This document shows positions 6,713-55,333 of a stretch of DNA of 64,000 bases, one piece after another. Position 1 is the stretch's first letter. The number at the start of each line of letters is the position of its first letter. Position numbers and translations under genes: made by a program. The notes under the pieces are model-generated. The model did not search any database. It was not told the origin of the DNA and worked only from the letters and a program-made list of their open reading frames with translations. The stretch lies in the NCBI GenBank assembly GCA_035457725.1, contig DATIBC010000044.1:84067-148066 (forward strand), written 5' to 3'. The DNA is from Alphaproteobacteria bacterium. Lineage in GTDB: Bacteria > Pseudomonadota > Alphaproteobacteria > CACIAM-22H2.

Positions 6713-7416
6713 TTCCAGAATTCGAACCAGCGCGCCGAGCCGTCGGTTGAAAAGAAAATGATCTCCGCCCGCCCGACCAGGTTTTCCGCCGGCACGAAGC
6801 CGACATCGGCGCGACTGTCGAGGGAATTGTCGCGATTGTCGCCCATGGCGAAATAGTGTCCCGCCGGCACCGCGAACACGTCGGTGTTGTCGGCCAGACC
6901 TGTATCCGAATACTCGATGATGCGATGCGCGCGGCTGCCAGGCAACGTCTCCAGAAACTGTCGGACGCGCGTCACCGCGCCGCTTTCGATCTCGATATAG
7001 TCCTCGATCCGCTCGCGCCGCACCGGTTGTCCGTTGATGTGCAACAGTCCGCCGCGCACTTGAATTCGATCGCCCGGAAGTCCGACGATGCGCTTGATGT
7101 AGTCGGTGCGGCGGTCGCGCGGCAATTTGAACACCGCCACATCGCCGCGTTGTGGTTCGCCTGCCAGGATTCGCCCGGAGAACGGCCCCAGGCTGTAGGG
7201 AAACGAGTGCCGACTGTATCCGTACGAGTATTTGGACACGAACAGGTAGTCTCCGACGAGCAGCGTCGGCACCATCGAGCCCGACGGAATGTTGAACGGT
7301 TCGTATGCCAGGGTCCTGATGACCAGCGCCACGGCGACCGCGATCACGCCGGTCTTAACGAACTCGACAAACCCGCTCGAGGATTTCCGCGCCATCTTGG
7401 TCTTGGAGATGCTCAT
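6664..7416 (-). CDS. lepB: Signal peptidase I
   Basis: SPase I boxes: SGSMVPTL (catalytic Ser), GDNRDNSLDSR, KRIVGLPGD. 250 aa. Confidence 0.9.
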   Translation of the reverse strand: MSISKTKMARKSSSGFVEFVKTGVIAVAVALVIRTLAYEPFNIPSGSMVPTLLVGDYLFVSKYSYGYSRHSFPYSLGPFSGRILAGEPQRGDVAVFKLPRDRRTDYIKRIVGLPGDRIQVRGGLLHINGQPVRRERIEDYIEIESGAVTRVRQFLETLPGSRAHRIIEYSDTGLADNTDVFAVPAGHYFAMGDNRDNSLDSRADVGFVPAENLVGRAEIIFFSTDGSARWFEFWKWPTSIRFERIFGRVR

Positions 7417-7531
7417 CGATCCGACCCGGCCGACTCGACCCGCTTTGATCGGGCGATCGTCACAGGGCGGCGATCAAGCCCTGCGGCGGCAAGCCTGTCA
7501 AGCACCGCACCAACGGCGAGAAACCGCATCC

Positions 7532-7936
7532 TCACCGCTCCGTCGCCACCGCGGAGATGATTACGATTGCTTGGGCCAATGGCGGCTCGTCGGAGAGGGT
7601 CACGTCGATCTGTGCCCGCGTGCCCGGGGGCAAAAGCTGTTCAAGCCGCACCAACGCGCCGCCCGAGAGCTCCATCGTCGGGCGGCCGCCGGACAGATTG
7701 ACCACCCCCATGTCGCGCCAATAGACCCCGGCGCGCAGGCCAGTGCCCAAGGCCTTGGCGCATGCCTCCTTGGCGGCGAAACGCCGGGCGTAACTTGCCG
7801 CAGGATTGGCGCGGCGTTCTGATTTTTGACGCTCGACTGGCGTAAAGACGCGCTCGAGAAAGCGCTCGCCGAAACGTTCCATCGTCCGCTCGATCCGGCG
7901 GATGTCGACGATATCGCTGCCGAGCCCGACGATCAT
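7532..7936 (-). CDS. acpS: Holo-[acyl-carrier-protein] synthase
   Basis: The internal ATG at 7936 gives 134 aa starting [16 protein letters not shown] (AcpS signature). It overlaps the pdxJ stop by ATGA. The longer 230-aa ORF has an Arg/Gly-rich N-terminus typical of a GC artifact. Confidence 0.8.
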
Positions 7937-8709
7937 GCCGAGCGTTCGCCCGCCGCGCTGGCGCGCGCCTTGTCCATCAATGCCCGCATCCGTTTGATCG
8001 CGCTGTCCAGTCCGCCGAAGATCGCCTCGCCGACCAGGAAATGCCCGATATTGAGCTCGACGATCGTGGCGATGGCCGCGACCGGCGCGACGGTATCGAA
8101 CGTCAAGCCATGGCCGGCGTGGCACTCGAGCGCGAGCTCCTCGGCGAGGGCTGCGGCGGCGGCCAGCCGTTCCAGCTCTTTCGCCACCCGCGGCCCCGAC
8201 GGCGCATCGAGATAAGCCTCGCAATAGCTTCCGGTGTGCAATTCCACGACCGGCGCGCCAAGTCGCCGGGCCGCGTCGAGCGCGGCGCGATCGGGTTCGA
8301 TGAAAAGCGAAACGCGGATGGCCGCGCTCGTCAGCGTATCAATGTACGGCTTCAAGTGGTCGAAATTGCGCACGACATCGAGACCGCCTTCGGTCGTCCG
8401 TTCCTCGCGCTTCTCCGGCACCAGGCAAGCCGCGTGCGGCCGATGGCGCAAGGCGATCTGGAGCATTTCCGGCGTCGCCGCCATTTCGAGATTGAGCGGC
8501 AGGTCGATCTCCCATGACAGCCGCTCGATGTCGCGATCGGAGATGTGGCGGCGGTCCTCGCGAAGATGGGCGGTGATACCGTCGGCCCCGGCTTGCGCCG
8601 CGAGCTTGGCCGCACGAACCGGGTCGGGGTGCGCGCCGCCGCGCGCGTTCCGGATCGTCGCAACGTGATCGATGTTGACGCCCAGACGCAGATGTCGCCG
8701 TGCTGCCAT
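7933..8709 (-). CDS. pdxJ: Pyridoxine 5'-phosphate synthase
   Basis: The ATG at 8709 gives 258 aa beginning [24 protein letters not shown], the canonical PdxJ N-terminus. The longer ORF extension was rejected. Confidence 0.9.
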
Positions 8710-17735: not shown

Positions 17736-18428
17736 ATGGCGAGCGACCACAAGATCACCGATATCGACGCGTGCGTGTTCGACGCGTACGGAACGCTATT
17801 CGACTACGCTTCGGCTGCCGCGCGTTGCCGGGACGCGCTGGGCGCCGATTGGCAGAAACTCTCCGAACTATGGCGGCGAAAGCAGCTCGAATACACCTGG
17901 TTGCGCAGCCTGATGGGCCGCCACGCCGATTTCTGGCACGTTACGGGCGAGAGCCTCGACTACGCGCTGGCCGTGCTCAAGCGCGAGGACCCGGCGCTGC
18001 GCGCGCTGCTGATGCAACAGTTTCTCAGCCTCGATGCCTTCCCCGAAGTCGGCCGCGTCTTGAAGACATTGAAGGATCACGGGGTGAAGACGGCGATCTT
18101 GTCCAATGGCTCGCCCACGATGCTAACCGCGGCGCTCAACAGCTCCGGCATTTCACGGCTCGTCGACGCCGCGCTATCGGTCGAGAGCGCCGGCATCTTC
18201 AAGCCGCACCCGACCGTCTATCAGCTTGTGGTCGACCGCTTCGCGACGGCGGTCAACCGAATTTGTTTTTTCTCCTCCAACGGCTGGGATGCCTGTGGCG
18301 CGGCGGCGTTCGGCTTGCGCGCCGTCTGGGTCAACCGTTATGGCCAGCCGGTTGAGCGCCTGCCGGTCGGGCCCGAGGTGACGCTTACGACCCTCGACGA
18401 AGTGCCGAAGCTGCTCGGCCTCGGATGA
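17736..18428 (+). CDS. Haloacid dehalogenase type II (HAD superfamily)
   Basis: The ATG at 17736 gives MASDHKITDIDACVFDAYGTLFD (nucleophile Asp motif of L-2-haloacid dehalogenases). 230 aa. Confidence 0.75.
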   Translation: MASDHKITDIDACVFDAYGTLFDYASAAARCRDALGADWQKLSELWRRKQLEYTWLRSLMGRHADFWHVTGESLDYALAVLKREDPALRALLMQQFLSLDAFPEVGRVLKTLKDHGVKTAILSNGSPTMLTAALNSSGISRLVDAALSVESAGIFKPHPTVYQLVVDRFATAVNRICFFSSNGWDACGAAAFGLRAVWVNRYGQPVERLPVGPEVTLTTLDEVPKLLGLG

Positions 18429-19288
18429 GCGAGGGCGAGCAGCGGGAGCGGTACTACACGACCTTCGACGGGCTGCGTTTGTTCTTTCGCGACTGGGGCG
18501 ACACGGCGGCCGACGATGCGCCGGTTCTCTGTCTGCCGGGCCTGACGCGCAATTCGAAGGACTTCGATCGCATGGCAGGTCGACTATCGCGGCGCCGGCG
18601 CGTCGTCGCGCCCGACTTGCGCGGCCGCGGACGCTCGGCCTATGCACGCGACTGGCGCAGTTACCAGCCGAGGGTCTATCTCGAAGACGTACGGCACCTG
18701 TTGGCGGCGCTCGGGATCGGCCGCGTCATCGTCGTCGGGACATCGATGGGCGGCCTGCTGGGGTTGGCGCTTGCTGTCGCTCTCCCCGGAGCGATACGGG
18801 GCCTCGTGATCAATGACGTCGGCCCCGAGGTCGACCAGGCCGGATCCAGGCGCATTCTCGCCTACATCTCGACCGATCGACCGCAGCCCGACTGGCCGAG
18901 CGCTGCCGCGCATCTGCGCCAACTCTTGCCGACGTTGTCGCTAAAATCCGACGAGGAATGGCTCGAGTTCGCCCACCACACGTTTCGCGAGGGCGACGAT
19001 GGAATGTTGCACTTCGATTGGGATGTAAATCTCGCCAAGCCGATCGCCGCCGGAAAGGGCGGCGCCGAGGAAGGCGATTTGTGGCGGTTGTGGCGGGCGG
19101 TGCGGCGTATTCCGACGCTTGTCATTCGCGGCGGCGTGTCGGATATCCTTTCCGAGGCGACGTTCGCGCGCATGAAGGCCGAGAAGCCGGACCTCGATCA
19201 GGTCACGGTCCCAGGCGTCGGGCACGCGCCGACCCTCGACGAACCGGAGTGCCGCGAGGCCCTTGATGCGTTCTTCCGCCGCCTCTGA
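18425..19288 (+). CDS. Alpha/beta-fold hydrolase
   Basis: 287 aa. Nucleophile elbow GTSMGG and a C-terminal His region (PGVGHAP). It overlaps the HAD stop by 4 nt. Confidence 0.75.
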   Translation: MSEGEQRERYYTTFDGLRLFFRDWGDTAADDAPVLCLPGLTRNSKDFDRMAGRLSRRRRVVAPDLRGRGRSAYARDWRSYQPRVYLEDVRHLLAALGIGRVIVVGTSMGGLLGLALAVALPGAIRGLVINDVGPEVDQAGSRRILAYISTDRPQPDWPSAAAHLRQLLPTLSLKSDEEWLEFAHHTFREGDDGMLHFDWDVNLAKPIAAGKGGAEEGDLWRLWRAVRRIPTLVIRGGVSDILSEATFARMKAEKPDLDQVTVPGVGHAPTLDEPECREALDAFFRRL

Positions 19289-20270
19289 GCGGGCGCCACC
19301 GCCGACCCTCGCCGACGTCGAAAATGCGGCGCGACGGCTCGAAGGGGTCGCCGTCCGCACTCCTCTGCTCGAATCGCCGCTGCTCAACGCCCAGCTTGGC
19401 GGCCGATTGTTGGTCAAGGCGGAAGCGCTGCAGCGTACCGGCTCGTTCAAAATCCGCGGCGCCTACAATCGTCTGTCGTGCCTAAAGCCGGCGCAGCGCG
19501 CCGCCGGCGTCGTCGCCTATTCCTCGGGAAATCACGCCCAAGGCGTGGCGCATGCCGCCCAGCTACTTGGAATGCCGGCGACCATCGTCATGCCGGCCGA
19601 CGCGCCGGCGCTGAAGGTCGCGAACACTCGCGCCTATGGCGCCGAGGTCGTGCTCTACGACCGCTACCGGGAAAGCCGCGAGGCGATCGGTGAACGCCTG
19701 GGGCGCGAGCGTGGCGCGGTCGTCGTTCCGCCATTCGACGATCCGCACATAATCGCCGGACAGGGCACAGTCGGTCTCGAAATCGCTGACCAAGCCTCCG
19801 CCATGGGCGCCCGACTCGACACCGTGCTCGCGGCGGCGAGCGGCGGCGGCTTGGTGGCCGGCATCGCATTGGCAGTCGCCGCCAAGTCGCCCGGAACCAA
19901 GATCTATTGCGCCGAGCCTTCGGCGCTCGACGACCACGCGCGTTCGCTCGCGAGCGGCCGCCGTGAATCGAACGATCCGGCCGCACGCTCGATTTGCGAT
20001 GCGTTGATGGCGCCAACGCCCGGCGAGATCACATTCGCCGTTAACTCGCGTCTTCTCGCCGGCGGCGTCGTCGCCAGCGACGACGAGGTCAAGCGCGCCA
20101 TGGCGATCGCCTTTCAGCACTTCAAGCTGGTCGTGGAGCCCGGCGGCGCGGTCGCCCTGGCGGCCGTTCTGCATGGCCGGGTGGCGATCGCCGGACGGAC
20201 GATCGCTGTCGTCGCCTCGGGCGGCAATGTCGACGTTGCGGCCTATCGCGACGCATTGCTGACGGCCTGA
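19263..20270 (+). CDS. PLP-dependent threonine/serine dehydratase-like enzyme (fold type II)
   Basis: 335 aa. A Lys in the SFKIRGA PLP-binding motif and glycine-rich GGGL loops. It is the size of a catabolic threonine dehydratase or serine racemase. Confidence 0.75.
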   Translation: MMRSSAASERAPPPTLADVENAARRLEGVAVRTPLLESPLLNAQLGGRLLVKAEALQRTGSFKIRGAYNRLSCLKPAQRAAGVVAYSSGNHAQGVAHAAQLLGMPATIVMPADAPALKVANTRAYGAEVVLYDRYRESREAIGERLGRERGAVVVPPFDDPHIIAGQGTVGLEIADQASAMGARLDTVLAAASGGGLVAGIALAVAAKSPGTKIYCAEPSALDDHARSLASGRRESNDPAARSICDALMAPTPGEITFAVNSRLLAGGVVASDDEVKRAMAIAFQHFKLVVEPGGAVALAAVLHGRVAIAGRTIAVVASGGNVDVAAYRDALLTA

Positions 20271-20273
20271 CCC

Positions 20274-21182
20274 GTGCCGCGCGACACCCCGAGCGCGCGA
20301 CTGCGCCGCGAGACCGTTATCGGTCTCTCCTGCGCGTTCCTGACATTGCTCATTTGGGCAGGCTTCACGATCATCACGCGCCACGGCGCCACCACGACGC
20401 TGGCCCCGGTCGACCTCGCGTTTCTCCGCTTCGCGGTTTCGGGCGCGATCGTAGCACCGTGGGCGATCAGGTACGGCTTCGGCGGCGTTGCATGGCCGCG
20501 GATGCTGGCTTTGGCCGTGACCGCCGGACTCGGCTTCGGCCTCCTCGCCTTCTCCGGATTCACTTTCGCGCCCGCGGCGCATGGCGCCGCGCTCATGCCG
20601 GGCGTATTGCCGCTGTGGACCGCCGGCCTCGCGGCGCTCATGCTGGGCGAGCGGTTCGGGCCGTTGAAGACGGCCGGCCTCGTACTGGTCCTCGGCGGCA
20701 TCGCCTGCATCGCCGCCGAAAGCGTCCTTGGCGACGGCCTCGAATATTGGCGCGGCGACGCCTTGTTTCTTGCCGCGTCGTTGTCGTGGGCGCTGTACAC
20801 CGTCGCCGCGCGCGCCTGGAACATCCGACCGATGCAGGCCGCGGCGATCGTCTATGTCGTTTCGGTGTTTCTCTACTTGCCGGTCTACTTCTTGTTTCTC
20901 GACGGCCGGCTGTTCGCGGCGCCGATCCGGGACATCGTCGTCCACGGGATTTATCAGGGCGCGCTGGCGACGGTCGTCTCGATCGTGCTGTTCACGCGCG
21001 CCGTCGTCGCCCTCGGCGCCGCATCGACGACGATGGTGACTTCCGCGGTACCGGGCGTGGTGACCATCGCGGCAATTCCCCTGCTGGACGAAATCCCGAG
21101 CCGGTTGACGGTCGCCGGGGTGTGCCTGGTCAGCGCCGGAGTAATCGCCACGGTATTCGCGCTCCGCGTCAGGAGTGCGTGA
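20274..21182 (+). CDS. DMT-superfamily (EamA-like) transporter
   Basis: 302 aa with 10 predicted TM helices arranged as two EamA-like halves. It starts 3 nt after the dehydratase stop. Confidence 0.7.
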   Translation: MPRDTPSARLRRETVIGLSCAFLTLLIWAGFTIITRHGATTTLAPVDLAFLRFAVSGAIVAPWAIRYGFGGVAWPRMLALAVTAGLGFGLLAFSGFTFAPAAHGAALMPGVLPLWTAGLAALMLGERFGPLKTAGLVLVLGGIACIAAESVLGDGLEYWRGDALFLAASLSWALYTVAARAWNIRPMQAAAIVYVVSVFLYLPVYFLFLDGRLFAAPIRDIVVHGIYQGALATVVSIVLFTRAVVALGAASTTMVTSAVPGVVTIAAIPLLDEIPSRLTVAGVCLVSAGVIATVFALRVRSA

Positions 21183-21193
21183 GACGAAATGCA

Positions 21194-22267
21194 ATGGTCA
21201 AGCCGTCGCAAATTGTGGTCGAAAACACGGGCGAAGGTTTCGTCTGCCCGGCGGACGCGATTTTGCTCGATGCGGCGCTCGCCGCCGGTCTGCACATGCC
21301 GCACAATTGCCGCGGCGGCGCCTGCGGCACATGCAAGGCGCGGATCCTCGAGGGCGAGGTCGACCACGGATGGGTCATGACCTTCGCCATCAGCGACGAG
21401 GAGAAGGCCGAAGGCTTCTGTCTCGCCTGCCAATCCCGGCCACTGTCGGCCAGTCTGCGGCTGGAAATGGTCAACCCGATGATCGCCCGCGCGGTAAGCG
21501 AAGTGGCGATCACGCCCGCCGAATATTCCGTCGACGTCCTGGCCGCGCAAAAGGTGACGCCGAGCGTGCTTCGTCTCGTCGTTGCTTTGCCGCGCACCGC
21601 CCGTTTCCGCTATCGCGCCGGCATGAACATGGAGTTCATCCTGCGCGATCTCGACCAGCCGCGCCCCTACTCGATCGCCAATGCTCCCGACGGCGACGGC
21701 GCAGCCCCGGACGGCCAGCTCGAGTTCTTCATCACCCGGCATCAGGAGGGCTTGGCCAGCGGCTGGCTTCATCGCCACGCGGCGCCTGCGGCGAGCTTGG
21801 GGATCCGCGGGCCCTATGGCGAGTTCCGCCTGCCGCCCGATCGTAACGCCCCCGTCCTCGCCCTCGCCGGCGGCACCGGTCTATCGCCGATCTTGTCGCT
21901 GCTCGAAAGCGAACTTCGCGCGGGATTGCCGGATCCGGTCGATCTGGAGTTCTCGGTTCGCGACCGGAGCGAGGCGTTCGCGCTCGAGAGACTGGCCGCG
22001 CTTGAGCGCCGCTTTGGAAGTTTCCGATTTCGTATCACGCTGACGCGCGAGCGTGTCGCGCCCGATGGGTGGACAACCGGCCGCATCCCGGCGCTGCTCG
22101 CGGCCGAGAGCCGCGATTTGTCCCGTCACATCGTCCTAATCGCCGGCCCGCCCGGTTTCGTCGACGATTGCGCGGAAGCAGTCGGTCGCTTGGGCGCCTT
22201 GGCCGATCGCGTGAAGACCGATTCGTTCCTGCCGCGCGCGCCGGGCGCTAGGCCGGGTTTCGGCTGA
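21194..22267 (+). CDS. 2Fe-2S ferredoxin / FAD-NAD(P)H oxidoreductase fusion (MmoC/BenC-type reductase)
   Basis: The ATG at 21194 gives 357 aa. The N-terminal plant-type ferredoxin Cys cluster is CRGGACGTC...C, followed by the FNR-like RPYSIA(N) FAD motif and GGTGLSP NAD motif. The 280-aa N-terminal extension of the 637-aa ORF overlaps the DMT gene in another frame and was rejected. Confidence 0.8.
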   Translation: MVKPSQIVVENTGEGFVCPADAILLDAALAAGLHMPHNCRGGACGTCKARILEGEVDHGWVMTFAISDEEKAEGFCLACQSRPLSASLRLEMVNPMIARAVSEVAITPAEYSVDVLAAQKVTPSVLRLVVALPRTARFRYRAGMNMEFILRDLDQPRPYSIANAPDGDGAAPDGQLEFFITRHQEGLASGWLHRHAAPAASLGIRGPYGEFRLPPDRNAPVLALAGGTGLSPILSLLESELRAGLPDPVDLEFSVRDRSEAFALERLAALERRFGSFRFRITLTRERVAPDGWTTGRIPALLAAESRDLSRHIVLIAGPPGFVDDCAEAVGRLGALADRVKTDSFLPRAPGARPGFG

Positions 22268-22859
22268 GCGCCGCCGATAGACCGTCGAGTAAAATGTCGG
22301 ACGCAAGATCCGCGAAGCCTTGCGGGCTCATTGCCCCGTCCGGCCGGTACCACGTATACGTCCAATTGATCAGGCCATAAAACGCCATCGCTGCCGGCAT
22401 CCGGACATCGCGGCGTCGCCCAAGCGCCGGCGCGACGGCGACGATTAGCGACAGCACGACCGCGACCAGCTCCCGCTCCTTGGCGACGATGGCGGCGCGG
22501 CTTCGTGGCGGCAAACTATCGAGCTCATTCAAGAGCAGGACGTGTTTGGCCCGCGCCGTCGCGTACATGCGCATGTGGGCGCGCACGACCTCGCGAAATA
22601 TGTCGCGGCTCGAACCCGGACCGCGAATCGCGTCTTGCACGGTGCGCGACAAGCCGTCCATATGCGCCGCAAGCAGGTCGTAGAGGATCGCTTGTTTCGA
22701 ATCGAAATAATGGTAGATGAGCGATTTCGTGCATTGGCACACCCGGGCGATGTCGGTGATCGATGTCCGAGCGAAGCCGTGTTCGGCGAACAGTTCGGCC
22801 GCGCGTTCGCGGATGAGCTGGCGCTTAGCCTCGTAATCGTCCGCGCGCGGCCGAGCCAT
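22248..22859 (-). CDS. TetR/AcrR family transcriptional regulator
   Basis: The internal ATG at 22859 gives 203 aa with an N-terminal TetR HTH (FAEHGFARTSITDIARVCQCTKSLIYHYF). The upstream 45-codon extension was rejected. Its 3' end overlaps the convergent reductase gene by 20 nt. Confidence 0.8.
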   Translation of the reverse strand: MARPRADDYEAKRQLIRERAAELFAEHGFARTSITDIARVCQCTKSLIYHYFDSKQAILYDLLAAHMDGLSRTVQDAIRGPGSSRDIFREVVRAHMRMYATARAKHVLLLNELDSLPPRSRAAIVAKERELVAVVLSLIVAVAPALGRRRDVRMPAAMAFYGLINWTYTWYRPDGAMSPQGFADLASDILLDGLSAALSRNPA

Positions 22860-22905: not shown

Positions 22906-24060
22906 TTAGAACACCGGGATGATATCGGCGGGGTCGAAGGCGACGGTTCTGCCGTCGATGCCGATTTCGGGGATTCCAGGGAATTCGACGCCATGCGGCT
23001 CGAGCAGGCCCTTCATCTTCAACACCGCGGCGCGCCAGTTCTCCCGCCGCTCGGCAAGGGTGAGAATTCCGAGACCAGCATCGCGCGCCACCTCCTCGAG
23101 CATGAAATGCGCTGGACGCCACGTCTCCGGAAGCTCCCAGAACTGCCCCGGCGGCTCATAGAGGATGCCTGAAAGAAAAACGTACCCAGCGCGAAGCTGC
23201 TTGGTGATCTGCGCTCGCATCTCGTCGGTGAGTTTTGGCAGCAGCCGGTCGAGAATGGCGAGACAAATGCCCATGTGGCGCGCCTCGTCACGGCCGACGT
23301 TGCGGAACGCTTCCTTGAACACCGGGATCGTTGTCCGCTGATACATGCTGTGAAACAGCGTCGCCGAGGCAACCTCGCCCATGAGGAACGAAGTAAACAA
23401 GATGGCGAGCGGGTACTTGCCGACGCCCTTCTTGAAGCCCTCCCAGTATCGACCGCCGTTATGGTAGTACCAGAGCACGTTGTTGCGCGCCAATTTGCCG
23501 AGCGGCGTTTCGGGTGCGTAGCCGAGCGGGCCGTTCGGCGTCAGCGATTGAATCGCGAGCTGGCAAATCTCCTCATGATTGACCTCGTCGCGCGTCACCG
23601 AGAAGAAGCACTTGCGGACCGGGTCTTCCTCATGGCTTTCGTACGTGTGGATCATCGCCCGGGCGAAGACCGCGGGGCCCGATGAATCGAAAACCGACAA
23701 CAGCGCCCACCAGTACGCCATCGCATAGCGTTGATCGAGGGTGAACGCGTTCACTTCGAGCGTACTCCAAGGCAGCTTGTTCGGCGCCCATCCGGGATCG
23801 CGCGAGGAATCGTAAATCTGCGCCAGCTTCGGCGTTTCGACGCGCCATTCGAGCGGAAATATGTTGCCTTCCTTGAACGGCGGCGGTTCGCGTGTGCCAA
23901 AAAGTATCGTCGTCGCGTCGGGTGCGGCGACCGGATTTGAGGGTGGCGCGGCGAGCTGCGCGACCAGATTATCCGCTGTTTTCGCGGCGCGTCCGGGCAT
24001 TACTGAAACTCCTTGCGTTGCGACGTGCGTCAAAATATTCGCTGACCGCTTGGTCGGCAA
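22906..24060 (-). CDS. Ferritin-like di-iron carboxylate protein (putative oxygenase/desaturase; family not assignable from sequence)
   Basis: 384 aa. Two EXXH motifs about 110 residues apart (DEVNHEE and DEARHMG), plus additional conserved Glu (YESHEE, LMGEV). This is the ligand spacing of soluble di-iron enzymes (acyl-ACP-desaturase / AurF / R2-like). There are no Cys/His Rieske or heme motifs. Confidence 0.5.
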   Translation of the reverse strand: MPTKRSANILTHVATQGVSVMPGRAAKTADNLVAQLAAPPSNPVAAPDATTILFGTREPPPFKEGNIFPLEWRVETPKLAQIYDSSRDPGWAPNKLPWSTLEVNAFTLDQRYAMAYWWALLSVFDSSGPAVFARAMIHTYESHEEDPVRKCFFSVTRDEVNHEEICQLAIQSLTPNGPLGYAPETPLGKLARNNVLWYYHNGGRYWEGFKKGVGKYPLAILFTSFLMGEVASATLFHSMYQRTTIPVFKEAFRNVGRDEARHMGICLAILDRLLPKLTDEMRAQITKQLRAGYVFLSGILYEPPGQFWELPETWRPAHFMLEEVARDAGLGILTLAERRENWRAAVLKMKGLLEPHGVEFPGIPEIGIDGRTVAFDPADIIPVF

Positions 24061-24199
24061 ATCACAATCTGTGGCATCGACTCAAACAAATCAGGCCTCA
24101 AAGTTAAACTGATTTCTTAGAATTACGGCTGATACTACGTATTAATAATACTCTGTGACGCACTTTAACTCTCACGTATGAGGTATTAAGGCTATTCAG
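24061..24199. promoter_or_regulatory. AT-rich divergent intergenic region (promoters of the di-iron gene and of otsB)
   Basis: About 140 bp at roughly 35-40% GC inside a ~65% GC genome. It contains the near-palindrome GTATTAATAATAC. Confidence 0.3.
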
Positions 24200-24229
24200 G
24201 TGGCCCCGAACTGTGGCAGTTTGCCTGCG

Positions 24230-25018
24230 ATGAAAGCTGATTCGGGTCCTTCGCTCTGCCCGCCGACGGTCGGCGCGCGGAAATGGGCGTTATTTCTCGA
24301 CGTCGATGGCACCCTACTCGACATCGCCGCAACCCCCGAGACGGCGAAGGTCCCGGACGATCTTCCGGGGATCTTGCTCCGCCTTTCGGGCTGGCTCGAC
24401 GGTGCAGTAGCCTTGGTGAGCGGTCGCGCGCTGGCGGACATCGATCGCATGTTCTTTCCGCTACGGTTGCCGGCGGCCGGCCAACACGGGGCCGAACTTC
24501 GGGACATCGGAGGCCGTATCAGCGAAGCGCCCGGCACGCACGGTGGCTTGGATGCGATCCGCGCATTGCTGAGCCGACGGTTTGGCGAATTGACCGGCGT
24601 TTTGATCGAGGACAAAGGGATGAGCATTGCGGTTCATTATCGTCTTGCGCCCGAGCATGGAGCGTACGTACGCGCGGCGGCCGAAGAACTTGCCCATCCG
24701 CACGCGGCGACGATGACCGTGCTCCACGGCAAGCAGATCGTGGAATTCAAATCACACGCGATCTGCAAGGGAACCGCCGTCATGGCATTGATGGACGCGC
24801 CGCCGTTTCGCGGGCGCGTTCCCGTTTTCATCGGCGATGATCGGACCGATGAGGACGGCTTCCTTACCGCCGCCAGGTTGGGAGGGCTTGCAATTCGTGT
24901 CGGTGATGGTCCCGGGCGCGATGCGCCATGGTATTTCACCACGCCTTACTCGCTTCGGGCATGGCTCGCAGGACTGCCGGATCGGCCGGCGGACGCCCCG
25001 GCAGGGGGAACCGCATGA
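24230..25018 (+). CDS. otsB: Trehalose-6-phosphate phosphatase
   Basis: HAD motif I FLDVDGTL and the TPP-family C-terminal IGDDRTDE motif. The first ATG is at 24230. A GTG at 24200 is an alternative start. Confidence 0.8.
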   Translation: MKADSGPSLCPPTVGARKWALFLDVDGTLLDIAATPETAKVPDDLPGILLRLSGWLDGAVALVSGRALADIDRMFFPLRLPAAGQHGAELRDIGGRISEAPGTHGGLDAIRALLSRRFGELTGVLIEDKGMSIAVHYRLAPEHGAYVRAAAEELAHPHAATMTVLHGKQIVEFKSHAICKGTAVMALMDAPPFRGRVPVFIGDDRTDEDGFLTAARLGGLAIRVGDGPGRDAPWYFTTPYSLRAWLAGLPDRPADAPAGGTA

Positions 25019-26820
25019 TCAAGCGCGATCTCAATCTTGCGGTGATCGGCAACTGCATCATCGGCGCGCTGATCGATCGCGCTGGCCGCCACGTCTGGTC
25101 CTGCTTCCCCCGCCTCGACGCCGATCCGATCTTTTGCAATTTGCTGAAGAACGGTGATCCTGTCCGCGAGGATGGATTCTTCGAGATCACCGTCGAGAAC
25201 CTCGCCAAGTGCGAACAATCCTATCTCGCCAACACGGCGATCTTGATCACCGTATTGACCGATAGCCAGGGCAACGCGCTGCGAATCCTCGACTTCGCGC
25301 CGCGCTTCAAGCAGTACGAGCGAATTTTCCGGCCGACCATGCTCATCCGTCGCGTCGAGCCGCTTGCCGGGCGTTGTCGAATTCGGGTCAAGCTGCGACC
25401 GGCGTTCGACTACGGCGCCCTGACGCCGACCCGCACGCTTGGCAGCAATCATATTCGCTATACGACCCCCGCCGGCGCGATCCGGCTCTCGACCGATGCG
25501 CCCATCTCCTATATTGCCGAGGAATCCGCATTCGTGCTCGACGAGCCGCTCAATTTCATCGTCGGCCCGGACGAGACATTTCCGGGATCGATCAACGGCA
25601 TCGCGCGCGATTTTCTCGAGCGCACCGAGGATTACTGGCGCGAATGGTCGCGTTATCTGTCGGTGCCGTTCGAGTGGCAGGATGCGGTGATCCGCGCGGC
25701 GATCACGCTCAAATTATGTAGCTTCGAGGAGACCGGCGCGATCATCGCGGCGATGACGACGTCGATCCCCGAGGAGCCTGGCACTGGCCGGACGTGGGAT
25801 TACCGCTATTGCTGGCTTCGCGACGCGTATTTCGTCGTCCATGCACTCAATCGTCTCGGCGCGACCCGGACGATGGAAGAATACATCCGATACATCACTA
25901 ACGTCGCGGCGCTCGATCCCGGCGGCAGCTTGCGGCCGGTATACGCCATCCTTCCCGACGAGCCGCTCGATGAACGGATCATCCCGAGCCTGCCGGGATA
26001 TCGCGACATGGGGCCGGTTCGCGTCGGCAATGGCGCATGGAGCCAGGTTCAGAACGACAGCTACGGCAGCATCGTGCTTGCGGCGGCGCAGATGTTTTTC
26101 GATCAACGACTGCCGCGCATGGGGGACATCGAACTTTTCCATCGCCTCGAGAAGCTCGGCGAGCAGGCGGTCGCGGTCGCGTTCACGCCCGACGCTGGGC
26201 TGTGGGAGTTCCGCACCAAGGCGCGCGTGCACACGCATTCGGCCGTCATGTGCTGGGCCGCCGCCAACCGCTTGTCGATGATCGCGCGACGGGTCGGCCA
26301 AAGCGAGCGTACGGCGTATTGGAACGGCCAAGCCGATCGTATCCGCCGCGATGTCTTCGCCCGCGCCTGGAATCCGCAGATCGGCAGTTTCGTCGAGACG
26401 TTCGACGGCGGAGAGGTCGACGCCAGCCTGTTGCTGCTCGCCGAGATCGGCTTCGTTCGCCCCGACGATCCGCGTTATCTCGGCACCGTTGCGGCGATCG
26501 AACAGCGGCTCAAGCGCGGACGTCATCTCCTGCGGTACAACGGCGCCGACGATTTCGGCGCCCCGACGATGTCGTTCACCGTCTGCACGTTTTGGTACAT
26601 CGAGGCGCTGGCGGCGATTGGCCGGCGCGAAGAGGCGCGCGATATTTTCGAGCACATGCTGGCCAGCCGCAATCACGTCGGCCTCTTGTCAGAGGATCTC
26701 GATCCCGCCACCGGCGAACTGTGGGGCAATTTTCCGCAGTCTTATTCGATGGTGGGCCTGATACTCAGCGCCATGCGGTTGAGCAAGTCGTGGGAGGAGT
26801 CGGTATGGCGCGTCTCGTGA
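25015..26820 (+). CDS. Glycoside hydrolase family 15 protein (glucoamylase/trehalase-like)
   Basis: The ATG at 25015 overlaps the otsB stop (ATGA). 601 aa with a GH15 (alpha/alpha)6 core (WDYRYCWLRDAYF). The N-terminal ORF extension was rejected. Confidence 0.8.
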   Translation: MIKRDLNLAVIGNCIIGALIDRAGRHVWSCFPRLDADPIFCNLLKNGDPVREDGFFEITVENLAKCEQSYLANTAILITVLTDSQGNALRILDFAPRFKQYERIFRPTMLIRRVEPLAGRCRIRVKLRPAFDYGALTPTRTLGSNHIRYTTPAGAIRLSTDAPISYIAEESAFVLDEPLNFIVGPDETFPGSINGIARDFLERTEDYWREWSRYLSVPFEWQDAVIRAAITLKLCSFEETGAIIAAMTTSIPEEPGTGRTWDYRYCWLRDAYFVVHALNRLGATRTMEEYIRYITNVAALDPGGSLRPVYAILPDEPLDERIIPSLPGYRDMGPVRVGNGAWSQVQNDSYGSIVLAAAQMFFDQRLPRMGDIELFHRLEKLGEQAVAVAFTPDAGLWEFRTKARVHTHSAVMCWAAANRLSMIARRVGQSERTAYWNGQADRIRRDVFARAWNPQIGSFVETFDGGEVDASLLLLAEIGFVRPDDPRYLGTVAAIEQRLKRGRHLLRYNGADDFGAPTMSFTVCTFWYIEALAAIGRREEARDIFEHMLASRNHVGLLSEDLDPATGELWGNFPQSYSMVGLILSAMRLSKSWEESVWRVS

Positions 26821-28187
26821 TCGTCTCCAACCGCGTCTCGCTGCCGGGTGAGCGGATTTCGCGCGCCGGCGGCCTGGCCGTCGGATTGCGCGAGGCTCTT
26901 CGCAAGCATGGCGGCGTTTGGTTCGGTTGGAGCGGCGTCGTCAGCGAGGAACCGCCGGCCGCGCCAAAAATCGTCGAGGCGGGCAAGACTGTGTTCGCAA
27001 CCGTCGACCTGACGCGAAAGGATCACGACGAATACTACAGCGGCTACGCCAATAGCAGCTTATGGCCGCTCTTTCACTACCGCGTCGGCCTGATCGAATT
27101 CCGCCGGGCCGCCTTCGAAGGCTATCAGCGGGTGAACGCGATGATGGCGCGGATGCTGAAGCCGCTTCTCAATCCGGACGATCTGGTGTGGGTCCACGAT
27201 TACCACCTGATTCCTTTCGCCGCTGAACTGCGCAAGCTTGGCGTCGCAAATCGAGTCGGTTTCTTTCTCCACACGCCGTTTCCCCCGGCGCAAGTGCTGG
27301 TTGCGTTGCCGGCGCATGAAGCGCTGATGGAAGCGATGTGCTCGTTCGACCTGGTCGGATTTCAGACGGCGAACGACGTGCGCGCGTTTTCGGACTACAT
27401 CGTCCATGACGCGAACGGCCGGTTCCTCGCCGACGGCACCTTCACCGCCTTCGGACGCACCGCGCGCGCGGCCGCGTTCCCAATCGGCATCGACGCCGAC
27501 CAGTTCACCACGCTTGCCCGCGAGGCGGCCAACGCCAACGAAACGACGCGACTTAAGTCCAGCCTCGTCGGTCGCGACCTGATCATCGGCGTCGACCGCC
27601 TCGACTACAGCAAGGGCCTGCCCAATCGTTTCGAAGCCTTCGAGCGGATGCTCGAACGGTGGCCGGAGCATCGCGCCAAAGTGACTTTTCTGCAGATCGC
27701 GCCGCCATCGCGCAGCGACGTCGCCCAGTATCGGGCGCTCCGCCGCCAGCTCGAGTCCGCGGCCGGCCGGATCAACGGCAAGTACGCCGAATTCGACTGG
27801 CAGCCGATCCGCTATCTGAATAAGAGCTTCGCGCGCGGTCAGCTCGCCGGGTTCCTGCGCATTGGCCGCGTTGGGCTGATCACACCCTTGCGCGACGGGA
27901 TGAATCTCGTCGCCAAGGAGTACGTCGCGGCGCAAAACCCCGAGAACCCCGGCGTGCTCGTCCTTTCACGCTTCGCCGGCGCCGCACGCGAGCTCGATAC
28001 CGCGCTGATCGTCAATCCTTATGACATCGAAGATATCGCGGAGGCTCTGCACCACGCCCTGGTCATGCCGCTCGTCGAGCGAATCGAACGTTGGCGCGCC
28101 ATGGATCGAGTCGTGCGCCGCAACACGATTTCCACCTGGCGCGAGGGATTCATCGCCACGCTGAGCGCGCTACCGGCGGCGGCCTGA
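26805..28187 (+). CDS. otsA: Alpha,alpha-trehalose-phosphate synthase (UDP-forming)
   Basis: The ATG at 26805 gives MARLVIVSNR... 460 aa. GT20 family motifs (HDYHL, LQIAPPSR). It overlaps the GH15 gene by 16 nt. Confidence 0.9.
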   Translation: MARLVIVSNRVSLPGERISRAGGLAVGLREALRKHGGVWFGWSGVVSEEPPAAPKIVEAGKTVFATVDLTRKDHDEYYSGYANSSLWPLFHYRVGLIEFRRAAFEGYQRVNAMMARMLKPLLNPDDLVWVHDYHLIPFAAELRKLGVANRVGFFLHTPFPPAQVLVALPAHEALMEAMCSFDLVGFQTANDVRAFSDYIVHDANGRFLADGTFTAFGRTARAAAFPIGIDADQFTTLAREAANANETTRLKSSLVGRDLIIGVDRLDYSKGLPNRFEAFERMLERWPEHRAKVTFLQIAPPSRSDVAQYRALRRQLESAAGRINGKYAEFDWQPIRYLNKSFARGQLAGFLRIGRVGLITPLRDGMNLVAKEYVAAQNPENPGVLVLSRFAGAARELDTALIVNPYDIEDIAEALHHALVMPLVERIERWRAMDRVVRRNTISTWREGFIATLSALPAAA

Positions 28188-52862: not shown

Positions 52863-54104
52863 ATGGACGAAGGCTTGACACAAGATCAGTTGGACATTCG
52901 CGCACGCGCGCGCGCCTTGGCCCTCCGCGTGATGGCACCGGCCGCCGCCGAAATCGACCGCAGCGAGGCTTATCCTTGGGGCCACGTCGCGGCACTCCGC
53001 GAGGCCGGTTTCATGGGCATGACCATCCCACAACGCTACGGCGGACAAGGCCGCTCGTATCTCGACGCGGTGCTGGTGATCGAGGAGATGGCCAAGTATT
53101 GCGGCGTCTCGGCGCGAATCGTCGTCGAGGCCAACATGGGGGCGATCGGCGCGATCATGGCCTATGGACGCGAGGACCAAAAGCGTCGCGCCGCCGAACT
53201 CGTGCTCGGCGGCGACAAGCCGGCGATCTGCATCACCGAGCCCGCTGCCGGCAGCGCCGCGACCGAGATGACGACGCGCGCCGACCGCAAGCGCGGCGGT
53301 TATGTCCTCAATGGCCGCAAGCATTGGATCACCGGCGGTGGCGTGTCGCGGCTGCATCTGATCTTTGCCCGCGTCTTCGATGAACGCGGCGCGGAACAGG
53401 GGATCGGTGGATTCATCGTCGAGCGCGATCCCGAGACCGGCGCGCCGAAGGGGCTTGTCATCGGCAGGCGCGAGCCAGCGATGGGATTGCGGGGGATTCC
53501 CGAAACCGAGATCATTTTCGACAACCTCGAAGCTGCGGAAAGCGCTTTGCTCGTCCCGCCGCGCGGCCTGGCGCATGGCTTCGGAGATCTTATGGACGCC
53601 TACAACGGCCAGCGCGTCGGCGCCGCGACGGTAGCGCTCGGGTTGGCGCAAGGCGCCTATGACAAGGCGCTCGCCTACGCCAAGTCGCGTGAGCAATTCG
53701 GCCGGCCGATCGCCGAGTTCCAGGGCCTACAGTGGCTGCTTGCCGACATGAGCATCGCGCTCGCCGCGGCGCGTGCGCTGGTCTGGCGCGCCGCACGTTC
53801 GGCGCCGCCCGACGGATTCCCCGATCAGCTTGCCGCCGCGCAGGCCAAGGTGCTGGCGTCCGAAACCGCGATCAAGGTCACCAACGACGCGCTGCAGGTC
53901 TGGGGCGCCGCCGGGTATTCGCGTGACAACCCGATGGAGCGCTACGTCCGCGACGCGCGCATGTTCGCCATCGCCGGCGGCACGGCGCAAGTTTTGCGAA
54001 CGTTGGTCGCATCGCAGCTCCTTGGACAAAAGCTGCCGCAGACGCGTGACGGATACACTCGCCTCGCCCAGGCCAAGTCGACGCGCGCCAAGGCGGCCGA
54101 GTAA
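52863..54104 (+). CDS. Acyl-CoA dehydrogenase family protein
   Basis: 413 aa with ACAD N-terminal, middle and C-terminal domains. The catalytic-base region is present near the C-terminus (YSRDNPMERYVRDAR). Confidence 0.85.
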   Translation: MDEGLTQDQLDIRARARALALRVMAPAAAEIDRSEAYPWGHVAALREAGFMGMTIPQRYGGQGRSYLDAVLVIEEMAKYCGVSARIVVEANMGAIGAIMAYGREDQKRRAAELVLGGDKPAICITEPAAGSAATEMTTRADRKRGGYVLNGRKHWITGGGVSRLHLIFARVFDERGAEQGIGGFIVERDPETGAPKGLVIGRREPAMGLRGIPETEIIFDNLEAAESALLVPPRGLAHGFGDLMDAYNGQRVGAATVALGLAQGAYDKALAYAKSREQFGRPIAEFQGLQWLLADMSIALAAARALVWRAARSAPPDGFPDQLAAAQAKVLASETAIKVTNDALQVWGAAGYSRDNPMERYVRDARMFAIAGGTAQVLRTLVASQLLGQKLPQTRDGYTRLAQAKSTRAKAAE

Positions 54105-55333
54105 TGACGGCCCAGTCGCTCGCCGGCCTGCGTATCTTCGATCTCACCCGCATTCTCGCCGGACCGACCTGCACCCAGCTTCTCGGCGATCTCGGCGCCG
54201 ACGTGATCAAGATCGAGCGGCCTGGCGTCGGCGACGACACGCGCAAATGGGGCCCGCCTTATCTCAAGGACAGGCACGGGCGGGAGAGCCACGAGAGCGC
54301 GTATTACCTGTCGTCCAACCGCAACAAGCGCTCGTTGACGCTCGACATCGCCAGACCCGAAGGACAGGTGTTGGCCCGCCGCTTGATCGGCGAATGCGAC
54401 GTCATGGTCGAGAACTTCAAGGTCGGCGACATGGCGAAGTACGGCCTAGCCTATGAGCAGTTGAAGCCGGTCGCGCCGCGCCTCGTTTATTGCTCGATCA
54501 CGGGATTTGGCCAGAGCGGCCCCTACGCGCCGCGGGCCGGCTATGATCTGTTGGCGCAAGGCATGGGCGGGATCATGAGCATCACCGGCCAGCCGGAGGG
54601 TACGCCGGGCTCGGAGCCGATGAAAGTCGGCGTCGGCATCGCCGACGTGATGACCGGGATGTACTCGACAGTCGCTATTCTCGCCGCGCTTCGCCACCGC
54701 GACGCCACCGGCGAGGGCCAGTGGATCGACATGGCGCTGCTCGACACGCAGGTCGCCTGGTTGATCAACGAAGCCATGAATTACCTGCTCAGCGGCGAGG
54801 TGCCGAAGCGGCGCGGCAATGCCCACCCCAACATCGTCCCATACCAGGTCTTCCCGGCGGCCGACGGCTATGTGCTCCTCGCCGTCGGCAACGACGGCCA
54901 ATATCGAAAGTTCTGCGAGTTCGCCGGTGCGCCCGAGCTGGCGGACGATCCGCGCTTCGCGTCCAACCCGCTTCGCGTCAAGCATCGCGCGACGTTGGTG
55001 GGGATCGTTACCGATCTAACCAAGCGTAAGACGCGCCAAGAATGGGTCGACGGGCTTGCCCGGCTTGGCGTTCCCTGCTCGCCGGTGAACGATGTCGCCC
55101 AGGTGTTCGACGACCCGCAGATCGTCCACCGCGCCATGAAACAGACGATGCGGCATGACGGTCTCGGCGCCGATATGCCGTTTGTCGCCAACCCAATCCG
55201 CATGAGCGCCACGCCGCCTCGCTATCGGCGCGCGCCGCCGCTTTGCGGACAGCACACCGATGAGCTGTTGCGCGAACTGCTCGGCTTGCGCGACGACGAG
55301 ATCGCCCAGCTTCGCGCCAAGGGGGTGGTGTAG
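54104..55333 (+). CDS. CoA-transferase family III (CaiB/BaiF/Frc-like)
   Basis: 409 aa. N-terminal GLRIFDLTRILAGPTCTQLLGDLGADVIKIE signature. It overlaps the ACAD stop (TAATG). Confidence 0.85.
   Translation: MTAQSLAGLRIFDLTRILAGPTCTQLLGDLGADVIKIERPGVGDDTRKWGPPYLKDRHGRESHESAYYLSSNRNKRSLTLDIARPEGQVLARRLIGECDVMVENFKVGDMAKYGLAYEQLKPVAPRLVYCSITGFGQSGPYAPRAGYDLLAQGMGGIMSITGQPEGTPGSEPMKVGVGIADVMTGMYSTVAILAALRHRDATGEGQWIDMALLDTQVAWLINEAMNYLLSGEVPKRRGNAHPNIVPYQVFPAADGYVLLAVGNDGQYRKFCEFAGAPELADDPRFASNPLRVKHRATLVGIVTDLTKRKTRQEWVDGLARLGVPCSPVNDVAQVFDDPQIVHRAMKQTMRHDGLGADMPFVANPIRMSATPPRYRRAPPLCGQHTDELLRELLGLRDDEIAQLRAKGVV

Follow-up and report, generated by a model that had tools for sequence, protein, structure and literature searches.

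The DNA analysed here (hereafter, the window) comprises 64,000 nucleotides (nt) of contig DATIBC010000044.1 (forward-strand positions 84,067 to 148,066), from the metagenome genome of an Alphaproteobacteria bacterium. On its minus strand lies a gene (22906..24000) whose 364-amino acid product, identical to NCBI HSE77762.1 ("hypothetical protein"), is the subject of this report and is called the di-iron protein after the metal site that it is predicted to contain. The same strand carries, 46 nt downstream of the stop codon of the di-iron gene, a gene for a 203-residue TetR-family repressor (22248..22859; Pfam TetR_N and TetR_C_24), and the plus strand carries a convergent gene for a 357-residue reductase (21194..22267; Pfam Fer2 and NAD_binding_1; the Fe2S2-FNR reductase) with a 3' end that overlaps that of the TetR gene by 20 nt. 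A preliminary description of this DNA, made by a model from the sequence, placed the reductase 640 bp from the di-iron gene across the TetR gene, in agreement with the 638 bp that separate the end of the reductase gene from the di-iron stop codon. The intergenic region that precedes the di-iron gene (24001-24199) is 42% GC, compared with ~63-66% elsewhere in the window, and in this AT-rich DNA, 43-56 nt upstream of the start codon, lies an imperfect palindrome (CGACCAAGCGGTCA, 24043..24056) that is a putative operator for the TetR repressor. A scan for sigma-70 promoters found no site close to the genes.

The minus-strand open reading frame (ORF) extends from 22906 to 24060 and would encode 384 amino acids if counted from the TTG at 24060, which is the length given in the preliminary description. 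The true start is almost certainly the ATG at 23998-24000, with the 384-residue reading an over-extension, because a ribosome-binding site (AAGGAG, 24009-24014, minus strand, read directly from the sequence) lies 8 nt upstream of this ATG and homologs of ~362 amino acids align from the same methionine. A separate gene call on an identical Logan contig also gives 364 amino acids, and the TTG at 24060 adjoins the conserved operator.

The AF2 model of the protein is confident (pLDDT 82) and contains long helices at residues 88-121, 126-153, 198-222 and 226-256, forming the four-helix-bundle core with R2-like topology that defines the ferritin-like di-iron carboxylate superfamily. There are only two ExxH motifs in the protein, the DEVNHEE and DEARHMG already recognised in the preliminary description; in 364-residue numbering they are E139-V-N-H142 and E239-A-R-H242, and their spacing is exactly 100 residues rather than ~110. 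The motifs lie on helices 2 and 4, and each is accompanied, as in other members of the superfamily, by a carboxylate ~30 residues earlier on helix 1 or 3 (D105, 34 residues before E139, and E209, 30 before E239). E139 and E239 are each 13 residues into their helices, and D105 and E209 stand at matching height on the antiparallel helices 1 and 3. Based on this helix register and on analogy, the predicted ligand set is D105 (23686-23688), E139 and H142 in DEVNH (23575-23589), E209 (23374-23376) and E239 and H242 in DEARH (23275-23289), all encoded on the minus strand. The site is most likely di-iron, with Mn/Fe as the alternative. The protein is thus a soluble, single-subunit ferritin-like di-metal protein, probably homodimeric, and very probably functions as an O2-activating oxygenase.

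Conservation among relatives down to 25% identity is consistent with this site. E121, D138 and D238 are invariant; E139, H142, W186, R241, H242 and P291 are nearly so; position 105 is always Asp or Glu; and only the two most distant members lack E209. The D-E-x-x-H signature, which also occurs in desaturases and multicomponent monooxygenases, includes a second-sphere Asp; D138 and D238 would have this role here. The most distant full-length relatives (P0188, P0191 and P0177; 25-31% identity) have D-A-x-R-H in place of D-E-x-R-H as the second motif, one of them has D-G-x-x-H as the first, and two lack E209; they may form a subfamily that is degenerate or differently metallated. Two family-specific extensions outside the helical core rank among the most conserved segments, one N-terminal (residues 37-60, window ~23821-23892, EPPPFxxxNIFPLEWRVETPKL, modelled with low confidence) and one C-terminal (residues 338-364, window ~22909-22989, FPxIPEIGIDGxTVAFDPxDIIPVF). 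E121, in the turn between helices 1 and 2 (Y-E-x-H-E-E-D-P), and W186 are conserved yet are not predicted ligands. CoA binding, dimerisation and reductase docking are possible roles for these extensions and residues.

A search for homologs of the di-iron protein returned 1049 at E<=1e-3, the best 120 of which are 68-87% identical to it, while an exhaustive hidden Markov model (HMM) search of 1.84 billion 50%-identity representatives returned only 271 matches, mostly fragments, and no bridge to any named family; judged from these sequences, the family is therefore compact, isolated and strongly constrained. No Pfam gathering cut-off and no NCBIfam model was passed, and nothing in the PDB matched the single protein below E=0.1 or the family profile meaningfully. 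The preliminary description had called the protein unassignable and suggested an HMM search against Pfam as a check; that search, now run, gave no confident match to any characterised family. Literature searches found no paper describing the family, which is previously undescribed and of which no member has been studied biochemically. Together with the recurrent pairing with a reductase described below, these results support the earlier suggestion of a possibly undescribed two-component di-iron oxygenase.

Comparison of the predicted fold with known di-iron proteins (one figure per protein) gave 18.7 for R2lox, 18.3 for a VlmB homologue with aldehyde-deformylating activity, 17.7 for R2, 15.4 for both PaaC and sMMOH alpha, 14.7 for both AurF and acyl-ACP desaturase, 14.1 for PaaA, 13.9 for CmlI and 13.0 for BoxB. 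Of the candidate families named in the preliminary description, R2-like oxidases are therefore nearest in fold, followed by AurF and acyl-ACP desaturase, but the protein reaches the sequence cut-off of none of them. One reading of the fold is that the protein is an R2-like ligand-binding oxidase with an Mn/Fe site, or another lipid-bound R2-type protein, with a role unrelated to CoA thioesters and with merely incidental neighbours. We consider this highly improbable: identity to R2lox and R2 is 11-14%, there is no PF00268 match, PDB sequence and profile searches were empty, and Foldseek, although concordant, is weak (E ~1e-3, TM ~0.5), such that the similarity is structural only. Moreover, no nrd genes lie nearby, R2lox and R2 themselves have neither a dedicated reductase nor CoA-pathway neighbours, and the recurrent link of the di-iron gene to PaaK-type ligases, crotonases and reductases, which is independent of gene arrangement, is unlikely to be incidental.

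Public names for family members include "hypothetical protein" (always the name in Burkholderia pseudomallei, Paraburkholderia, Pandoraea and Variovorax), "diiron oxygenase", "ferritin-like domain-containing protein", "rubrerythrin" (JGI) and, automatically assigned by UniProt, "aminobenzoate oxygenase". The last name implies an arylamine N-oxygenase of the AurF/CmlI type that makes nitro or nitroso aromatics. AurF and CmlI are likewise single-subunit ferritin-like di-iron oxygenases, and AurF (PF11583) is the only Pfam oxygenase family with even a weak match, 18.3 bits against a cut-off of 29.6. However, AurF and CmlI structures have an extra His ligand four residues ahead of the second ExxH Glu, and the corresponding position in our family, 235, is Val or Ile throughout. 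This missing third His, the sub-threshold score and the gene contexts, which are catabolic CoA-ester clusters and in no locus biosynthetic, make N-oxygenation very improbable. The name "rubrerythrin" would imply peroxide or iron handling rather than oxygenation of a substrate. It has a near-threshold Pfam match behind it (PF02915, 21.4 bits against 22.8), but this covers only residues 228-298, a single helix pair, in a protein about twice the size of the rubrerythrin core that lacks a rubredoxin domain, has an R2-like rather than a minimal ferritin fold and carries the conserved N- and C-terminal extensions. Given also its ties to catabolic operons, a dedicated type of reductase and a metabolite-type TetR repressor, we regard a rubrerythrin-like role as exceedingly improbable.

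The family is common in metagenome genomes from soil, groundwater and marine sources. A Burkholderiales branch includes B. pseudomallei (hundreds of assemblies), Paraburkholderia fungorum and Pandoraea, and further members occur in Variovorax, Vitreoscilla, Marinobacterium, Oceanibacterium, Nonomuraea, Candidatus Entotheonella, Dehalococcoidia and "Obscuribacterales" metagenome-assembled genomes (MAGs). The copies in Entotheonella (Tectimicrobiota) and in a Dehalococcoidia MAG (L028, L031, L034 and L040-L046) are 70-73% identical to alphaproteobacterial ones and are nested inside proteobacterial clades on the tree, an indication either that a highly constrained gene was transferred horizontally or that the bins are contaminated.

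Evidence for regulation comes from the palindrome that precedes the di-iron gene. When the promoters of close relatives are aligned, a single block proves to be conserved, the palindrome TTGACCGATCGGTCAA, and the family consensus is TTGACCG-NN-CGGTCAA. Across the 1.27 Mb of loci that were fetched, GACC-N4-GGTC occurs 84 times, and 22 of these sites, in 19 loci, fall within 150 bp upstream of a di-iron start codon, where ~0.9 would be expected; this ~25-fold positional enrichment holds across phyla, including Entotheonella TSY1, "Obscuribacterales" MAGs and Vitreoscilla. In some relatives the palindrome is doubled, with adjacent or overlapping copies (L004 7928-7965, L006 7930-7967, L053 1782-1803), suggesting that two TetR dimers may bind cooperatively. 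A second inverted repeat in the AT-rich promoter region (24082-24121; 13-nt arms TCAAACAAATCAG and CTGATTTCTTAGA, 14-nt spacer) was also considered as an operator and was dropped in favour of the GACC-N4-GGTC palindrome because relatives do not conserve it. The palindrome bears a loose likeness to published PaaR operators (Thermus AACnAACGTTnGTT; Streptomyces AACGA-N4-TCGGT), which we did not use as evidence.

The repressor itself has the features of an acyl-CoA-responsive TetR protein, combining a TetR_N domain, a C-terminal domain related to those of known acyl-CoA sensors and a palindrome at the promoter that it would regulate. Its nearest relatives with solved structures are 3CCY (188 bits), Thermus PfmR (3VPR), Tfu_2799 (3DCF), AibR, FadR, KstR2 and Mce3R, among which AibR is an isovaleryl-CoA sensor (PMC10636190, PMC5389471). 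TetR proteins that sense aryl-CoA esters are also documented, namely PaaR with phenylacetyl-CoA and MbdR with 3-methylbenzoyl-CoA (PMC4424350, PMC6651687). By analogy with these proteins, the repressor probably responds to an acyl- or aryl-CoA. It is predicted to bind the palindrome at 24043-24056, and it is probably co-transcribed with the di-iron gene and autoregulated. We surveyed 80 species-representative loci by clustering of neighbouring ORFs and by targeted searches, and ~25 of them have a TetR homolog no more than ~100 bp downstream of the di-iron gene.

The reductase begins with a plant-type [2Fe-2S] ferredoxin domain (Cys39/44/47/79), to which an FNR-like FAD/NAD domain is joined on the C-terminal side. 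NCBIfam places it nearest to MmoC (154 bits) and BenC (146 bits), with scores that fall far short of the equivalog cut-offs (500 for MmoC), and its best PDB relatives are a P450 reductase (5OGX), BenC (1KRH), a carbazole dioxygenase reductase, T4moF and MmoC; the MmoC-type architecture assigned to it in the preliminary description is thus borne out. In the window, the reductase gene is the last of a tight five-gene plus-strand operon (17739-22267) and starts 11 nt after the stop codon of eamA. The operon encodes, in order, a type II haloacid dehalogenase (TIGR01428, 210 bits, cut-off 125), an alpha/beta hydrolase, a pyridoxal phosphate (PLP) enzyme resembling threo-3-hydroxyaspartate ammonia-lyase (347 bits, under the cut-off of 452), an EamA protein and the reductase. 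The PLP gene and the reductase gene are kept together in ~8-10 close relatives. We considered and rejected this operon as one that defines the pathway, since its synteny is clade-specific and common only to close relatives.

Of the 80 surveyed loci, 17-19 (~20%) contain a homologous reductase gene no more than 8 kb from the di-iron gene, and the two genes occur in at least five arrangements. They are convergent across the TetR gene in the window's clade and ordered di-iron, TetR, reductase on one strand in L067; in L029 and L032 the reductase gene ends an operon of di-iron, MaoC, crotonase and ligase genes. In Pandoraea, Burkholderia and Variovorax the reductase gene is directly downstream in the same operon (gaps of 13-230 bp), and in Vitreoscilla the gap is 3 bp. 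The partnership looks ancestral, because on a neighbour-joining tree the reductase-bearing contexts range from the deepest branch to the window's clade. The preliminary description spoke of a "dedicated" reductase; because the window reductase lies outside the di-iron operon, in an operon of its own, that term holds only by virtue of the repeated co-location elsewhere. We consider it likely that a reductase of the Fe2S2-FNR class is the physiological electron donor of the family, and the window reductase would serve the di-iron protein of this locus.

The link to phenylacetate and other CoA thioesters, which is the main functional clue, was missed by the preliminary description, as were the operator and the true start codon. 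In ~14 loci paaG or paaI, together with paaK, precedes the di-iron gene on its own strand at a distance of 11-170 bp. The neighbours in L017 pass curated cut-offs (PaaG 406 bits, cut-off 345; PaaK 681 bits, cut-off 646). In L087, the gap between paaK and the di-iron gene is only 11 bp, and genes for ribosomal proteins come next; in L083, an RND efflux system does. Because flanking genes are unrelated among loci, the paaG/paaI-paaK-di-iron group is a three-gene unit that has moved between genomic backgrounds. PaaABCD were not found within 8-10 kb of these compact loci, the clades of which are sister to the window's clade on the neighbour-joining tree. Among ~90 loci, homologs of PaaA, PaaB, PaaC or PaaD lie near the di-iron gene in only one, and there they form a separate complete set.

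A longer version of the same association is found in the Burkholderiales. In Pandoraea, Burkholderia S171 and Variovorax, a tight operon begins with genes for a TetR protein, a MaoC hydratase (nearest to the PaaZ C-terminal domain) and a crotonase (best models include PaaG and the alternative oxepin-CoA hydrolase), and continues with an OB-fold protein and an SCPx-type thiolase, a PaaK-like ligase (265-283 bits, hence a paralogue), family III CoA-transferases, the di-iron protein and the reductase. An ABC uptake system and a gene of the indolepyruvate-oxidoreductase family follow, and the latter recurs beside the operon; enzymes of this family convert arylpyruvates to arylacetyl-CoA. The operon of V. 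paradoxus VAI-C also encodes a true PaaN (625 bits, cut-off 579), so that, going by these matches, it covers every upper Paa step (K, G, Z-C, N and thiolase) except the epoxidase. PaaABCDE are absent from the Burkholderiales operons, in which the di-iron/reductase pair is the only oxygenase. In Vitreoscilla filiformis pVF1, the pair comes last in a complete paa supercluster (paaN, paaY, paaG, paaH, paaI, paaK, paaABCDE, pcaF, paaZ).

Other genes also recur near the di-iron gene. An alpha/beta hydrolase resembling PcaD or enol-lactonases is found in unrelated contexts: immediately upstream of, and overlapping, the di-iron gene in Entotheonella (L040-L045, ~7100-8000), divergent from it in Vitreoscilla (L090 10942-11757; by BLAST, this hydrolase has no close homolog in the other loci) and inside the reductase operon in the window (18425-19288). 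It could be a pathway partner acting as a thioesterase, lactonase or epoxide hydrolase. EamA/DMT transporters recur as well, directly upstream of the di-iron gene in Nonomuraea (L092 10144-12981, with a MocR-type regulator), nearby in V. paradoxus (L091 374-1273) and upstream of the reductase gene in the window (20274-21182), where the protein has a weak NCBIfam match to the aromatic amino acid exporter YddG. Searches of the window with the CoA-pathway query proteins turned up a single homolog, a family III CoA-transferase (54104-55333, plus strand), 30 kb away and 40% identical to that of the Pandoraea di-iron operon. Divergent from the di-iron gene is a trehalose cluster (24200-28187, plus strand) with otsB (Trehalose_PPase, 24200-25018), an otsA-like ORF ending at 28187 and a large ORF of ~600 codons that resembles GH15 on visual inspection alone. 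In L001, L004, L006 and L013, too, the di-iron gene has an otsB homolog at its side, and this adjacency is probably clade synteny only.

We propose the following model for the function of the di-iron protein. NAD(P)H would reduce the FAD of the reductase encoded at 21194-22267, the [2Fe-2S] cluster of which would hand single electrons to the di-metal site on the four core helices. The reduced site would then activate O2 and oxygenate an arylacetyl-CoA thioester, in this clade most likely phenylacetyl-CoA or a close analogue. The reaction would most likely be 1,2-epoxidation of the ring, and the product would pass to a PaaG-type isomerase and then to a ring-opening enzyme of the PaaZ/PaaN type. 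The TetR protein would repress the system through the palindrome at 24043-24056 until released, presumably by the CoA-thioester substrate. Taken as a whole, the proposal is that the di-iron protein uses NAD(P)H and O2 to oxygenate an arylacetyl-CoA, probably by epoxidising the ring, and is under the control of an acyl-CoA-sensing TetR repressor; in our judgement it is evenly balanced between right and wrong. Its parts differ in strength: the substrate is probably a paa-type CoA thioester, while the assignment of ring epoxidation is tentative and falls somewhat short of an even chance. Ring epoxidation is favoured because the compact operons lack precisely this step between PaaK and PaaG, and because it is the one upper-pathway function that nothing else in the V. 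paradoxus operon would supply.

Several observations weigh against this proposal. The functional evidence is guilt by association throughout; ~40% of the loci have no partner gene at all, and contexts such as those in Entotheonella, Dehalococcoidia and Nonomuraea gave no clue to function; no paa genes were found within the window; and the window reductase belongs to an operon separate from the di-iron gene. In Vitreoscilla, the pair coexists with PaaABCDE in one cluster, which argues against simple replacement of the classical epoxidase and favours another substrate or reaction. The Burkholderiales operons have MaoC and crotonase hydratases and an SCPx-thiolase/OB-fold pair yet lack an acyl-CoA dehydrogenase, a gene set in which an O2-dependent desaturase would fit as well.

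The last two points lead to an alternative in which the di-iron protein belongs to the same pathway family without being its ring epoxidase, and acts instead as an accessory hydroxylase or O2-dependent desaturase on an aryl-acyl-CoA or acyl-CoA. Examples include side-chain or alpha-hydroxylation, salvage of dead-end hydroxyphenylacetyl-CoA, and alpha,beta-desaturation feeding the MaoC/crotonase hydratases and the OB-fold/thiolase-type cleavage enzyme. The fold accords with this alternative, being about as near to di-iron enzymes that handle lipids (R2lox, aldehyde-deformylating oxygenases and acyl-ACP desaturase) as to PaaA and BoxB, as do the combination of a single subunit with an Fe2S2/FNR donor, which resembles the soluble acyl-ACP desaturase system, and the presence of the fatty-acyl-CoA sensors FadR and PfmR among the TetR relatives. 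It does not explain why the V. paradoxus operon contains all upper Paa steps but the epoxidase, with the pair as its sole oxygenase, or why the compact paaG-paaK operons miss exactly the epoxidation that lies between the product of PaaK and the substrate of PaaG. We therefore regard an accessory oxygenase as unlikely, though a serious contender.

If it is a ring epoxidase, the di-iron protein would be a functional analogue, and not a homologue, of the five-component PaaABCDE epoxidase and of BoxAB. With PaaABC(D)E it would share the use of a ferritin-like di-iron oxygenase on a CoA thioester, with electrons from NAD(P)H delivered by an Fe2S2/FAD reductase; it also shares the genomic company of PaaK, PaaG, PaaI, PaaZ/PaaN and thiolase, and would share TetR-type control (PaaR senses phenylacetyl-CoA in some bacteria). 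In contrast to PaaA and PaaC (PF05138), it has no Pfam match, and hhalign of the family profile against true PaaA gave a probability of 0.2%; it is also a single subunit without PaaB, PaaC or PaaD partners. The reductases differ as well, since PaaE has its FNR domain at the N-terminus and its Fe2S2 domain at the C-terminus and the window reductase has them in the opposite order; BLASTP aligns the two in permuted fashion (window reductase 17-92 with PaaE 285-358, and 132-345 with PaaE 31-245). With BoxAB, the benzoyl-CoA 2,3-epoxidase, the proposed system would share the economy of one catalytic di-iron protein and one reductase for epoxidation of an aryl-CoA ring. However, BoxA is a 2x[4Fe-4S]/FAD protein and not an Fe2S2-FNR fusion, the di-iron protein lacks both homology to BoxB (~470 amino acids) and such a [4Fe-4S]/FAD partner, and no box genes are present in any locus.

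Likeness to other di-iron systems is also partial. The soluble acyl-ACP delta-9 desaturase, a di-iron enzyme, consists of one type of subunit, which forms a homodimer and carries two D/E-E-x-x-H motifs. Its acyl substrate is linked to phosphopantetheine, and its electrons come from a plant-type [2Fe-2S] ferredoxin and FNR, two proteins that are fused as one reductase at the window locus. The di-iron protein nevertheless has no homology to FA_desaturase_2 (PF03405), and its context is aromatic-acid catabolism, not lipid synthesis. The soluble multicomponent monooxygenases sMMO and ToMO differ in that neither the window nor any other locus contains genes for a ~500-residue alpha subunit, for beta or gamma subunits or for a coupling protein, and the likeness to sMMO is confined to the domain architecture of the reductase. 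BioE, a ferritin-like di-iron oxygenase of one subunit that cleaves acyl-CoA/ACP, is a precedent for enzymes of this kind with acyl-CoA as substrate, and its pairing with a ligand-responsive repressor is a further similarity (PMC12704756). We rejected BioE as a member of the same family, since it is small and cADO-like, with ligands E26/E53/H56/E125/E155/H158, and its context is biotin genes and a MocR-type regulator (PMC12704756).

A bolder extension of the proposal is that the family represents a third, evolutionarily independent class of aryl-CoA ring epoxidase, in which one di-iron subunit and a BenC/MmoC-type reductase would do the work of five components. It would replace PaaABCDE outright in many uncultured Alphaproteobacteria, those with the compact paaG/paaI-paaK operons, while in Burkholderiales, B. 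pseudomallei among them, it would drive a Paa-like pathway that is paralogous and serves a phenylacetate analogue; this extension we regard as doubtful. Were the proposed function correct, CoA-dependent "hybrid" aerobic degradation of aromatic compounds would gain a previously unrecognised type of oxygenase. Genome surveys take PaaA and PaaC as markers of phenylacetate catabolism (PMC13186573), and such surveys would miss organisms that use the di-iron enzyme or misclassify them as incomplete. Study and engineering would be much easier with a minimal aryl-CoA epoxidase of two proteins than with PaaABCDE, and such an enzyme would add a new branch for mechanistic comparison of ferritin-like di-iron oxygenases, and the TetR/operator pair could act as a CoA-ester biosensor. 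The example of BioE indicates that single-subunit ferritin-like di-iron enzymes acting on CoA thioesters were still being discovered in 2025 (PMC12704756). Our data predict that the di-iron protein belongs to a widely distributed family of ferritin-like oxygenases that is tied to CoA-dependent catabolism of aromatic acids, with a conserved reductase partner and a TetR/operator switch.

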